In this document: in pieces, positions 36,227 to 44,288 of the stretch | Numbering within the stretch: position 1 is the first letter of the stretch | How the letters are laid out: every line of letters starts with the position of its first letter | Sequence record: PV029540 | Length of the DNA stretch: 64,000 nucleotides | Reading direction: 5' to 3' (one strand) | Origin: Escherichia phage PBM-1 | Translations under genes and position numbers: made by a program | The notes under the pieces: model-generated | Database searches by the model: none | The model's input: only the letters and a program-made list of their open reading frames with translations | Told to the model about the DNA's origin: nothing

Positions 36227-39367
<3,141 letters not shown>

Positions 39368-39395: not shown

Positions 39396-41375
39396 ATGAC
39401 TTTATTATCTCCGGGCATTGAGCTCAAAGAAACTACGGTTCAAAGCACCGTGGTTAATAACTCTACTGGTACAGCAGCTTTGGCCGGTAAATTCCAGTGG
39501 GGTCCTGCTTTTCAAATTAAACAGGTTACAAATGAAGTAGATTTAGTTAATACTTTTGGTCAACCTACAGCTGAAACTGCTGACTATTTTATGTCTGCAA
39601 TGAATTTCTTACAATACGGAAATGATTTGCGAGTTGTGCGTGCTGTCGATAGAGATACCGCTAAAAACTCATCTCCGATTGCCGGTAATATTGAATACAC
39701 TATTTCTACCCCAGGTAGTAACTACGCGGTTGGAGATAAAATCACGGTTAAGTATGTTTCAGAAGATGTTGAAACAGAATGTAAAGTTACCGAAGTAGAT
39801 GCTGATGGAAAAATTAAGAAAATTAATATTCCTACCGCAAAAATTATCGCTAAAGCGAAAGAAGTAGGCGAATATCCAGCATTAGGTTCTAACTGGACCG
39901 CGGAAATTTCTTCGTCTTCCTCTGGTTTAGCTGCAGTAATAACTCTTGGAAAAATTATTACTGATTCTGGTATTTTATTAGCTGAAATTGAAAATGCTGA
40001 AGCTGCTATGACAGCTGTTGACTTTCAAGCAAATCTCGAAAAATATGGAATTCCAGGAGTAGTAGCTCTTTATCCAGGCGAGTTGGGCGATAAAATCGAA
40101 ATTGAAATCGTATCTAAAGCTGACTACGCAAAAGGTGCTTCTGCATTACTTCCAATTTATCCAGGTGGCGGAACACGCGCATCTACTGCCAAAGCAGTGT
40201 TTGGATATGGACCACAAACTGATTCACAATACGCTATCATAGTTCGTCGCAATGATGCTATTGTTCAAAGCGTTGTTCTTTCGACAAAGCGAGGTGAAAA
40301 AGATATTTACGATAGTAACATCTATATTGACGACTTTTTCGCAAAAGGTGGTTCAGAATATATTTTCGCAACTGCACAAAACTGGCCAGAAGGCTTCTCT
40401 GGAATTTTAACTCTGTCTGGTGGATTATCATCAAATGCTGAAGTAACAGCAGGAGATTTGATGGAAGCTTGGGACTTCTTTGCTGACCGTGAATCTGTTG
40501 ATGTTCAGTTGTTTATTGCGGGTTCTTGTGCTGGTGAATCTTTAGAAACAGCATCTACTGTCCAAAAACACGTCGTCTCAATTGGGGATGCTCGCCAAGA
40601 TTGCTTAGTACTGTGCTCGCCACCGCGTGAAACTGTAGTTGGAATTCCTGTAACTCGTGCTGTTGATAACTTAGTCAATTGGAGAACCGCATCAGGTTCA
40701 TACACTGATAATAACTTTAATATCAGTTCAACCTACGCAGCAATTGATGGTAACTACAAGTATCAGTATGACAAATATAATGATGTAAATCGTTGGGTTC
40801 CATTAGCAGCTGACATTGCTGGTTTATGCGCGAGAACTGATAACGTTTCTCAGACTTGGATGTCTCCAGCTGGTTATAATCGTGGCCAGATTCTTAACGT
40901 TATTAAACTTGCTATTGAAACTCGCCAAGCTCAGCGCGACCGTTTATATCAAGAAGCTATCAACCCAGTAACTGGTACAGGTGGTGATGGTTACGTATTG
41001 TATGGTGATAAAACAGCTACTTCTGTTCCTTCTCCATTTGATCGTATTAACGTTCGTCGTCTGTTTAATATGTTGAAAACGAATATCGGACGTAGTTCAA
41101 AATATCGTTTGTTCGAATTAAACAACGCGTTTACTCGTTCATCGTTCCGCACAGAAACTTCCCAGTACTTGCAGGGAATTAAAGCTCTCGGTGGAATTTA
41201 TGAATATCGTGTAGTTTGCGATACAACAAATAACACTCCGTCAGTAATTGATAGAAATGAGTTTGTTGCAACATTCTACATCCAACCGGCGCGCAGTATA
41301 AATTATATTACTTTGAATTTCGTCGCAACTGCTACTGGTGCAGATTTCGATGAGTTAACTGGTCTTGCAGGTTAA
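39396..41375 (+). CDS. 18: gp18 tail sheath protein
   Basis: 659 aa as in T4. Confidence 0.95.
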   Translation: MTLLSPGIELKETTVQSTVVNNSTGTAALAGKFQWGPAFQIKQVTNEVDLVNTFGQPTAETADYFMSAMNFLQYGNDLRVVRAVDRDTAKNSSPIAGNIEYTISTPGSNYAVGDKITVKYVSEDVETECKVTEVDADGKIKKINIPTAKIIAKAKEVGEYPALGSNWTAEISSSSSGLAAVITLGKIITDSGILLAEIENAEAAMTAVDFQANLEKYGIPGVVALYPGELGDKIEIEIVSKADYAKGASALLPIYPGGGTRASTAKAVFGYGPQTDSQYAIIVRRNDAIVQSVVLSTKRGEKDIYDSNIYIDDFFAKGGSEYIFATAQNWPEGFSGILTLSGGLSSNAEVTAGDLMEAWDFFADRESVDVQLFIAGSCAGESLETASTVQKHVVSIGDARQDCLVLCSPPRETVVGIPVTRAVDNLVNWRTASGSYTDNNFNISSTYAAIDGNYKYQYDKYNDVNRWVPLAADIAGLCARTDNVSQTWMSPAGYNRGQILNVIKLAIETRQAQRDRLYQEAINPVTGTGGDGYVLYGDKTATSVPSPFDRINVRRLFNMLKTNIGRSSKYRLFELNNAFTRSSFRTETSQYLQGIKALGGIYEYRVVCDTTNNTPSVIDRNEFVATFYIQPARSINYITLNFVATATGADFDELTGLAG

Positions 41376-41383
41376 TTGATTAT

Positions 41384-41397
41384 GGGGCTTCGGCCCC
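41384..41397 (+). other. GC hairpin with UUCG tetraloop after gene 18
   Basis: GGGGC-TTCG-GCCCC directly after the gene 18 stop, covering the first codons of the HNH ORF. Confidence 0.6.
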
Positions 41398-41414
41398 TAT
41401 TCTCGAGGAAACAA

Positions 41415-42032
41415 GTGATTATTTCTAAGTTTGTTAAAGTGAAAATTGTACCATCAAATTTTAAACATTATCAATCAAAGGGTTATAAATTAACACCTCT
41501 TGGAGCGGTTAAACACGGATTTAGGTATTATGAAATTGATGTTAAAGTTGAAGACATTAAAGGTAATACCGCGTATGTAAAATGCCGTTGCGATAAATGT
41601 GGAATTGAATATAACCAACGCATTGGAAGAAACACTGATATTTGTCGTGATTGCCGTCATAAAGATAAAATGCGCAATAATTCATATGGTTCCGCGAATA
41701 AAGGAAAAACAGTAGAATGTATGCATGGCGTAAATCATCCAAGATGGAACCCAAATAAATCTGAAATGCGTGAATATATTTCATTGGTATATAAAGAAAC
41801 TCGTAAGCATAAGAAAATTTGGTCAAAATGGCCAAATGCTGATAAAATAGGAGTGTGCGGTACAAAAGGTGCTTACCAACTTGATCATAAGGTATCTATC
41901 AAATACGGTTTTGATAATTTAATTCCTGCTGAAATAATTGGCGGTATTAATAATTTAGAAATAATCACTTGGGAATCTAACCGAGAAAAATCAAAAAGAA
42001 ATAGTGTAGATCTTTGGGATTTACTAGAATGA
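41415..42032 (+). CDS. HNH homing endonuclease inserted between genes 18 and 19
   Basis: ORF 41376-42032 (first codon TTG, inside a GC hairpin); GTG at 41415 has GAGGA SD; CxxC...CxxC zinc-finger-like motifs and HNH-like YQLDHKVSIKYGFDN...N. Confidence 0.7.
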   Translation: MIISKFVKVKIVPSNFKHYQSKGYKLTPLGAVKHGFRYYEIDVKVEDIKGNTAYVKCRCDKCGIEYNQRIGRNTDICRDCRHKDKMRNNSYGSANKGKTVECMHGVNHPRWNPNKSEMREYISLVYKETRKHKKIWSKWPNADKIGVCGTKGAYQLDHKVSIKYGFDNLIPAEIIGGINNLEIITWESNREKSKRNSVDLWDLLE

Positions 42033-42039
42033 TTCTAAA

Positions 42040-42057
42040 GGCCTGTTTCGGCAGGCC
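42040..42057 (+). other. hairpin after the HNH gene
   Basis: GGCCTG-TTTCGG-CAGGCC just after the HNH stop and before the gene 19 late promoters. Confidence 0.5.
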
Positions 42058-42058
42058 A

Positions 42059-42066
42059 TATAAATA
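42059..42066 (+). promoter_or_regulatory. late promoter (TATAAATA), distal, for gene 19
   Basis: Exact TATAAATA right after the hairpin that follows the HNH gene. Confidence 0.55.
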
Positions 42067-42117
42067 CACTATATCCTTAATTCTTTAATTCTATATGCCC
42101 TAGGTTAAACATAGGGA

Positions 42118-42125
42118 TATAAATA
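42118..42125 (+). promoter_or_regulatory. late promoter (TATAAATA), proximal, for gene 19
   Basis: Exact TATAAATA ~15 nt upstream of the gene 19 ATG. Confidence 0.6.
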
Positions 42126-42139
42126 CTACAGAGGCTAAT

Positions 42140-42631
42140 ATGTTTGTAGATGATGTAACACGAGCGTTTGAATCTGGTGATTTTGCTCGACCTAACTTAT
42201 TCCAAGTAGAAATTTCTTATCTTGGACAAAATTTTACGTTTCAATGTAAAGCCACTGCTTTACCAGCTGGCATTGTAGAAAAAATTCCAGTCGGATTCAT
42301 GAACCGTAAAATTAACGTAGCAGGCGATCGTACATTCGATGACTGGACTGTTACAGTAATGAACGATGAGGCACATGATGCTCGCCAGAAGTTTGTTGAT
42401 TGGCAAAGCATTGCTGCTGGGCAAGGGAACGAAATTACTGGTGGAAAACCAGCAGAATATAAAAAGAGCGCTGTTGTTCGCCAATATGCTCGTGACGCTA
42501 AAACTGTAACAAAAGAAGTCGAAATTAAAGGCCTGTGGCCTACTAACGTGGGTGAACTTCAATTAGATTGGGATTCAAACAATGAAATCCAAACATTTGA
42601 AGTAACTCTTGCTCTCGATTATTGGGAATAA
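42140..42631 (+). CDS. 19: gp19 tail tube protein
   Basis: 163 aa; two late promoters upstream. Confidence 0.95.
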   Translation: MFVDDVTRAFESGDFARPNLFQVEISYLGQNFTFQCKATALPAGIVEKIPVGFMNRKINVAGDRTFDDWTVTVMNDEAHDARQKFVDWQSIAAGQGNEITGGKPAEYKKSAVVRQYARDAKTVTKEVEIKGLWPTNVGELQLDWDSNNEIQTFEVTLALDYWE

Positions 42632-42663
42632 AATGAATGGGGAGAAATCCCCATCCTGCTTAA

Positions 42664-44288
<1,625 letters not shown>

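Follow-up and report, generated by a model that had tools for sequence, protein, structure and literature searches.

The window considered in this work is a stretch of 64,000 nucleotides (nt) from Escherichia phage PBM-1 (sequence record PV029540), and all positions given below refer to it. It is a segment of a T4-like (Tequatrovirus) genome in which the interval between gene 18, encoding the tail sheath protein, and gene 19, encoding the tail tube protein, is occupied by a single long open reading frame (ORF) on the plus strand. An initial annotation of the sequence took this ORF for an HNH homing endonuclease inserted between the two tail genes. Our analysis of the locus favors a similar view: positions 41376-42031 appear to be a free-standing homing-endonuclease gene cassette, the homing itself being putative, and we put the probability of this at roughly 0.68. 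The sequence elements originally listed (the ORF, the hairpins, the GAGGA, the GTG, and the promoters) are all present, and the features of the interval are as follows.

41376-42031, plus strand: inserted cassette of 656 bp, delimited by aligning the window directly to T4, T6, and six relatives that lack the cassette.
41384-41397, plus strand: cassette-specific hairpin GGGGC-TTCG-GCCCC (loop C(UUCG)G), located in the non-coding leader and ending 7 nt before the Shine-Dalgarno sequence.
41405-41409, plus strand: Shine-Dalgarno sequence GAGGA, 5 nt before the GTG at 41415.
41415-42032, plus strand: ORF of 205 amino acids with a GTG start and a TGA stop (42030-42032), comprising a zinc-ribbon N-domain and an HNH-like C-domain.
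41437-41815, plus strand: variable block, amino acids 8-134 (the N-domain with its four cysteines, and the linker), of type A in this phage, located by sliding identity against T6.
41727-42029, plus strand: C-terminal HNH-like (His-Me finger) domain, amino acids 105-205.
41883-41888, 41952-41954, and 41979-41981: catalytic candidates D157-H158, N180, and N189, respectively.
42032-42139, plus strand: ancestral 18-19 spacer, outside the insert, a base-for-base match to T4, with a hairpin, two late promoters, and the gene 19 Shine-Dalgarno sequence.
42040-42057: spacer hairpin GGCCTGT-TTCG-GCAGGCC, -12.8 kcal/mol; none of 200 shuffled sequences folds as well.
42059-42066 and 42118-42125: late promoters TATAAATA, within the ancestral spacer.

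Alignment with T4 and other relatives gives the exact borders of the insertion and upholds the proposal that the interval is occupied relative to T4. The cassette stands in place of 8 bp (TACGGTGC) of the T4-type empty site, where the 18-19 spacer is 116 bp long and reads TAA-TACGGTGC-ATTCTAAAGGCCTGTTTCGGCAGGCCATATAAATAC.... Its left border is the TAA stop codon of gene 18 (41373-41375), and its right edge falls inside the stop codon of the ORF itself; neither terminal inverted repeats nor a target-site duplication were found in the alignment of 41376-42031. Because the remaining 108 nt are the T4 spacer, the downstream hairpin and the late promoters are ancestral and older than the insertion, and their original description as belonging to the inserted gene has to be abandoned. 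The cassette is thus minimal, consisting of the leader hairpin, the Shine-Dalgarno sequence, and the ORF. The same geometry recurs in another genus, in that the cassette of phage S16 is bounded by the stop codon of gene 18 and ...TGA-TCATAGA..., and its cassette-less relative L018 has the exact TGA-TCATAGAG... junction. An 8-nt "deletion scar" (CTAGAATG) at the empty site of a further relative, L017, was considered and dropped, since it is better read as an ancestral ATTCTA(A/G)A spacer. A transposon was rejected on the joint absence of terminal inverted repeats and a target-site duplication, and a group I intron or other known RNA was rejected because a search of Rfam returned no intron match. 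What remains is a stand-alone ORF with its own translation signals between conserved genes, within neither an intron nor an intein.

The ORF matches phrog_5104 of PHROGs (E = 3.5e-90), a family of "unknown function." Pairwise ratios of nonsynonymous to synonymous substitution rates (dN/dS) are 0.08-0.26, rising to 0.46 between the window and T6, a comparison that includes the divergent block described below, and no disruption was seen in the copies examined; taken together, these values indicate a gene under purifying selection. On the strength of the phrog_5104 match, the tblastn homologues, the profile matches, and dN/dS, the sequence comparisons argue that this is not a chance ORF. Its annotation is inconsistent across records: it is a "homing endonuclease" in ADUt and M12a, a "holin" in ZCEC14, a "type II restriction endonuclease" in Roth04 and Roth21, and a "putative head morphogenesis protein" in T6 (AP018814), is mostly "hypothetical" elsewhere, and is unannotated in RB5, RB6, RB7, RB9, and RB10. 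A longer reading of 218 amino acids from TTG 41376 is available, and three lines of evidence support GTG 41415 as the real start, as originally suggested. Conservation across the family starts at [M/V]IISK, which corresponds to this GTG; the 39-nt leader has a 1-nt deletion in RB3 and an extra C in vB_SsoM_113 and must therefore be non-coding; and the same start was chosen by the annotators of RB3 and in the 1994 entry for T6 ("ORF19.1 likely begin by GTG codon"). The claim that the first codons of the gene lie inside a GC-rich hairpin consequently holds for the hairpin, which is present, and for the codons only in the 218-amino acid reading.

The leader hairpin is missing from T4, and its predicted stability of -10.8 kcal/mol was equaled or exceeded by 11 of 200 shuffled sequences. 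An equivalent stable stem-loop just upstream of the Shine-Dalgarno sequence is found in every lineage examined, and in S16 and CkP1 it takes the form GGGCC-TTCG-GGCCC, a compensatory G:C to C:G change with respect to the window. On this comparison, the hairpin is a conserved part of the cassette. The initial annotation envisaged that it gates translation; the hairpin ends upstream of the Shine-Dalgarno sequence and leaves it free, a weak 4-bp outer helix reaching only its first two bases, and from the Shine-Dalgarno sequence onward the RNA is predicted to be unstructured (z = +1.4), so that structure-gated translation finds no support. A role as an intrinsic terminator was likewise rejected, as no U-run follows the stem and a terminator scan was empty. 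No late promoter was found between 39367 and 42059, and a scan for sigma-70 promoters gave scores at background level. In the absence of a promoter in the insert, the cassette is promoter-less in this phage, and its transcription would have to continue from the late promoter of gene 18 at 39360. Signals differ among the homologues: a late TATAAATA lies inside the hairpin in Mokit, as in the logic of I-TevI, and between the hairpins and the start codon, close to the latter, in CBH8 and Bp7, and TGnTATAAT-like elements abut the hairpin in QL01, RZ, myPSH1140, and Roth21. At the other end of the gene, only 3-21 nt separate the ORF from gene 19 in CBH8, Mokit, and AS-zj.

Stable hairpins immediately upstream of the ribosome-binding site are a feature shared with the hairpin-regulated T-even homing endonucleases I-TevI, segB, and mobE of Aeh1. 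The closest published analogue of the arrangement in the window is seg43(25) of Aeromonas phage 25, where the hairpin is adjacent to the ribosome-binding site but does not sequester it (PMC2988022). Unlike the I-TevI type, the leader in the window has no promoter and its Shine-Dalgarno sequence is outside the stem, and for these reasons a switch between long and short transcripts of the I-TevI type cannot operate here.

Occupancy of the site was surveyed in ~500 Tequatrovirus phage records matching the T4 junction. The 18/19 junction is empty in 382 of them and occupied in 117, with 47 carrying the RB3-type allele, which is that of the window, and 70 the T6-type allele; ~76% of the records therefore lack the cassette and about a quarter have it. 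Carriers of the RB3-type allele include RB3, RB5-7, RB9, RB10, pSs-1, HP3, and HY03. T4 itself is empty, and the gene is evidently not conserved in all T-even relatives, as its identification as an insertion had implied. The flanks are 97-99% identical among phages that differ in the presence of the cassette, and the empty site is clean and identical whatever the flanking haplotype. Comparable pairs exist in other genera, with S16 carrying the cassette and L017 lacking it (98% identical flanks), and L021 carrying it and L020 lacking it.

A tblastn search returned 239 homologues in phage records, at 240 places, that is, one per genome in all but one. Coverage of the query is at least 80% in 232 of the 239, and among the 60 matches listed one is split into two pieces. 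In every context examined, the full-length homologue lies directly after gene 18.

Contexts with a homologue after the sheath gene: T6; S16; CkP1 and myPSH1140 (Karamvirus); Roth21 (Klebsiella); QL01 and Bp7 (Dhakavirus).
Further contexts of the same kind: RZ (Gaprivervirus); POP12 (Pectobacterium); CBH8 (Winklervirus); Mokit (Acinetobacter); AS-zj (Aeromonas); phiM12 (Sinorhizobium); several metagenomic phages.

A single comparison, between CkP1 (Karamvirus) and S16 (Gelderlandvirus), goes further: the ends of the cassette and the spacers are 96-100% identical, whereas genes 18 and 19 are ~86% identical. This pattern is a signature of gene conversion or lateral transfer.

Close to the left border, the 3' end of gene 18 (41282-41336) exhibits dense synonymous polymorphism, with ~20 variable sites in 55 bp, preceded by an invariant stretch (41190-41281). 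At least four haplotypes of this segment occur among 11 Tequatrovirus sequences, with no strict linkage to the cassette. This cluster and a gene 19 haplotype were considered as markers of immunity or of the target; they seemed linked in the 11 sequences and failed on further data. The haplotype of the gene 18 3' end that accompanies allele A is found in 68 records, against only 47 records with the cassette; QOTSP, which is cassette-less with a T4 empty site, does not differ from the window across the final 110 nt of gene 18; and RB3 carries a T4-like gene 19 haplotype. All cassette-less relatives share the 108-nt downstream spacer.

The gene itself is dimorphic. Between the window (type A) and T6 (type B), there are sharp DNA breakpoints at ~41437 and ~41815, and the central 380 bp are unalignable. 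The 62 nt of the cassette 5' of this block are identical between the two types, and the ~215 nt 3' of it are 83-100% identical per 30-nt window, except for one at 70%. At the protein level, this translates into N-domains of ~20% identity and C-domains of 93% identity. A second lineage, represented by the metagenomic sequences L046 and L047, has the same breakpoints and contrasts type A with type B between flanks that are at least 90% identical; a third (P0015 and P0025) is suggested by protein identities only. N-domains of the same type are 40-57% identical across lineages. The comparisons would fit two ancient N-domain types that have been either maintained or repeatedly exchanged, with the HNH domain tracking the lineage of the host. 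One could go on to suppose that A and B are alternative target-recognition modules of one homing endonuclease, forming a trans-lineage polymorphism in which alleles compete at one locus and replace each other by way of homology arms provided by the HNH domain and the leader. We offer this tentatively, as a proposal that may well prove wrong; if it were true, replacement of A by B and the reverse would constitute, within a selfish gene, an arms race over specificity. The alleles of two Dhakavirus genomes at the 18/19 site, QL01 and Bp7, are 59% and 34% identical to the window protein, respectively, and that of Bp7 is of a longer CHI14-like type of ~223-227 amino acids. Allelic replacement at this site thus appears to go beyond the A/B pair.

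Four cysteines of the N-domain (Cys59, Cys62, Cys77, and Cys80) are invariant in an alignment of 28 sequences. The AlphaFold model has a pLDDT (the confidence score of the program) of 84.9 over the full length and of 93.9 for the C-domain alone. The N-domain is modeled as a small sheet with a zinc ribbon, gives weak matches to the DUF4379 treble clef in 8 of 28 members, and may serve as the DNA-recognition module. In the C-domain, a modeled strand at residues 154-158 ends in D-H and is followed by a strand at 181-185 and a helix at 186-192 that contains N189, a topology corresponding to the ββα-metal fold of HNH proteins, in which the catalytic His ends the first strand. Residues D157, H158, N180, and N189 are invariant in all three alignments made (A1, of 28 sequences; A2, of 33 sequences extending down to 24% identity; and A3, of 45 C-domains). 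The best structural matches are the Gme HNH protein (4h9d) and the HNH protein of phage GVE2 (5h0o), with which, as with the HNH domain of Cas9, the window protein shares the ββα-metal core and a DH...N...N motif in which the last residue is Asn rather than His. The 9-residue spacing from N to N matches that of N854/N863 in Cas9 and N87/N96 in I-HmuI.

A profile search retrieved 6,208 representatives of clusters formed at 50% identity (E <= 1e-3). Many of these matches have only the C-domain in common with the window protein, fused to other N-terminal modules such as DUF7487, and the two C-domain-only relatives examined for genomic context, P0169 and P0116, are both found at unrelated loci. 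A nuclease combined with a variable binding module is, by analogy, the pattern typical of homing endonucleases.

Among the closest known systems are the Mob proteins of T4 (MobA-E): they too are sporadic, free-standing, intergenic cassettes of a T-even genome with a nuclease domain of the HNH superfamily. Seven seg and mob genes of T4 lack promoters (PMC2988022), and the window cassette is, like mobA, mobC, mobD, and mobE, promoter-less and dependent on upstream phage promoters (PMC2988022). In Mob proteins, the HNH domain is N-terminal and the DNA-binding region is C-terminal (PMC2988022), whereas in the window protein this order is reversed, with the zinc ribbon at the N terminus and HNH at the C terminus. 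The window protein, unlike Mob, has no Pfam HNH or NUMOD matches, and its gene is located among late structural genes rather than at genes of nucleotide metabolism. No paralogy with mob genes was detected by tblastn (240 places in 239 records), and the sequence evidence places the window protein outside the Mob family; similarly, the occurrence of one tblastn place per genome, in all but one of the 239, argues against a detectable relationship to Hef. Another close counterpart on record is ORF19.1 of T6, deposited in 1994 as an unnamed ORF with no function assigned. It shares with the window the locus, family, leader, GTG start, and HNH domain and differs in its N-domain of type B.

If the cassette is a homing-endonuclease gene, late transcription would reach it by read-through from the promoter at 39360, past the leader hairpin, and translation would begin at the non-AUG start. 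When a cassette-less relative infects the same cell, the enzyme would nick or cut the empty 18/19 junction, and recombinational repair from the cassette-bearing genome would copy the cassette in. Self-immunity is predicted to result from a recognition site across GGTTAA/TACGGTGC/ATTCTAAAGG that the insertion splits; a site spanning the junction is preferred because the QOTSP flank and the identity of the 108-nt spacer leave nearby polymorphisms unable to explain immunity.

Several considerations weigh against this reading. No significant HNH profile match was obtained against Pfam or NCBIfam, or against the Protein Data Bank (PDB) by phmmer and hmmsearch with full-length and C-domain profiles. 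Pfam was searched with the window protein and with sets of 28 and 33 relatives, and the best scores of curated HNH families came from single members in each case (HNH_4 at E = 0.078 and, for a remote member, 3.5e-4; HNH_5 at E = 0.22). The PDB profile searches returned zinc fingers, spurious leucine-rich-repeat matches, which arise because the "IGxIxNLQxL" of the C-domain resembles such a repeat, and the HNH domain of Cas9 at E = 2.5 only. The initial annotation had proposed a profile search as the check on its HNH assignment, and because no such match was obtained, the case for the C-domain as an HNH (HNN-variant) nuclease domain, as judged from the model, is good but not decisive. Of the original description as an HNH/zinc-finger protein, then, the zinc ribbon and the HNH-like fold and motif stand, and recognition by Pfam, NCBIfam, and PDB profiles does not. 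Furthermore, full-length relatives occupy the same locus in phages of Aeromonas, Acinetobacter, and Sinorhizobium, with divergence that roughly tracks that of the flanking genes; an old accessory gene, vertically inherited and repeatedly lost, would give the same picture, and ordinary homologous recombination, with no nuclease involved, can also produce presence and absence. The searchable literature yielded no data on cleavage, marker exclusion, or homing in this family, nor any paper characterizing the window ORF or T6 ORF19.1.

The idea of an ancient accessory nuclease of the tail and head module, inherited vertically, beneficial to the phage (for example, in degrading competitor or host DNA or in assisting packaging), lost often, including in T4, and not actively mobile, deserves to be set out in full. 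It would account for homologues immediately downstream of gene 18 in Tequatrovirus, Gelderlandvirus, Karamvirus, Dhakavirus, Gaprivervirus, Winklervirus, phages of Pectobacterium, Acinetobacter, Aeromonas, and Sinorhizobium, and metagenomic phages, with identities that drop roughly alongside those of gp18 and gp19, and it sits well with purifying selection and with the integration of the gene into the operon in CBH8, Mokit, and AS-zj (3-21 nt to gene 19). It is harder to square with a clean empty site in the 76% of Tequatrovirus that are without the gene, with the coexistence, in phages sharing 97-99% identity elsewhere, of two alleles whose central 380 bp cannot be aligned, with a cassette far more alike in CkP1 and S16 than the genes on either side of it, and with the reuse of the nuclease domain alongside other N-terminal modules elsewhere. 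We regard it as unlikely. Another alternative is an inactive remnant of a once-mobile homing-endonuclease gene, kept only by linkage to essential late genes. The lack of a promoter of its own, the GTG start, and the putative status of catalysis are what one might expect of a remnant, whereas the invariance of all catalytic-motif and zinc-ligand residues, dN/dS of 0.08-0.26 (0.46 across the A/B block), and the rarity of truncated or split copies (at least 80% coverage in 232 of 239 homologues; one split among the 60 listed) speak of a gene that is being maintained, and this alternative seems to us very improbable.

The structural matches invite a different comparison, since 4h9d and 5h0o belong to the class of small HNH nicking enzymes and the gene is preceded by those for terminase and sheath and followed by those for tube and portal. 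A packaging-associated protein of the HK97 gp74 or GVE2 type, assisting the terminase (gp16/gp17) and portal (gp20), could be imagined at such a place. An HNH protein associated with the terminase would be expected to be conserved and required in all members of the phage group, yet this gene is absent from T4 and from ~76% of Tequatrovirus; T4 and the 382 empty relatives among ~500 have the same terminase and portal genes and so dispense with it. The T4-type terminase gp17, moreover, has its own nuclease and packages by a headful mechanism (T4 annotation; general knowledge), and an extra zinc ribbon that comes in two swapped types fits target recognition better than docking to a terminase. We give this explanation the least credence, and little at that. 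A free-standing homing-endonuclease gene therefore remains our preferred reading of the cassette, most likely as an uncharacterized member of a class that is well-known in phages.

The genes on either side of the interval are as follows.

37532-39364: gene 17, from the ORF list and the annotation of relatives.
39396-41375, plus strand: gene 18 (tail sheath), from the ORF list and the annotation of ADUt, RB3, and T4; the protein is 97.9% identical to T4 gp18.
42140-42631, plus strand: gene 19 (tail tube), the right flank, from the ORF list and the annotation of ADUt, RB3, and T4.
From 42703: gene 20, from the ORF list and the annotation of relatives.

Shigella phage pSs-1 and Escherichia phage ADUt share 99.3-99.5% identity with the window over positions 40900-42700. 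A 32-kb GenBank record named "Staphylococcus phage SAJK-IND" (MG010123.1) is 99.5% identical to the Tequatrovirus region around the cassette and is almost certainly a mislabeled or contaminant sequence.

Elsewhere in the late structural module, the 19-20 spacer of the window (42632-42702) contains no ORF. Some T4-like phages have an ORF of ~190 amino acids between genes 19 and 20 (Bp7, L008:4269-4850; L046:1619-2191; L047:1908-2480), and its weak matches to SegE_GIY-YIG and NUMOD3 suggest that it probably encodes a seg-like homing endonuclease. A distant metagenomic T4-like phage has an intein in its portal gene (L036:2105-4324, with PF14890 between two Portal_T4 matches), together with a 385-amino acid relative of the window protein upstream of gene 19. 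In another metagenomic relative (L028:67-3990), a sheath protein of 1307 amino acids, twice the length of that of T4, is followed immediately by family member P0036, and in S16 (L005:7111-7618), gp104.1, annotated as an "intron-like DNA endonuclease," adjoins the head scaffold and protease genes. The combination of gp104.1 of S16, the seg-like ORFs between genes 19 and 20, the intein of L036, and the family member of L028 suggests that selfish nuclease genes have a hotspot in the late structural module of T4-like phages.

The practical importance of the cassette is modest, given that the class is well-known and that the ORF was already deposited in the 1990s, as T6 ORF19.1. What appears to be new, on the present comparisons, is the combination of full-length relatives faithful to one locus across T4-like lineages, a constant hairpin just upstream of the Shine-Dalgarno sequence, and deeply diverged A/B types of the N-domain joined to near-identical HNH domains, verified by sequence in at least two lineages. 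If the enzyme is active, it would add to the T-even repertoire, beside seg, mob, and hef, a family of HNH homing endonucleases that is unrecognized by Pfam and of "unknown function" in PHROGs and that, unlike seg, mob, and hef, targets the late structural operon of sheath and tube genes. Activity would also correct the inconsistent labels under which the gene has been deposited ("hypothetical," "holin," "type II restriction endonuclease," and "head morphogenesis protein") and would provide a candidate explanation for localized marker exclusion and mosaicism around genes 18-20 in crosses with T6 or RB3-type phages. The locus-faithful spread of the cassette and its A/B dimorphism together make it a tractable system in which to follow how selfish nucleases persist and how their specificity changes.

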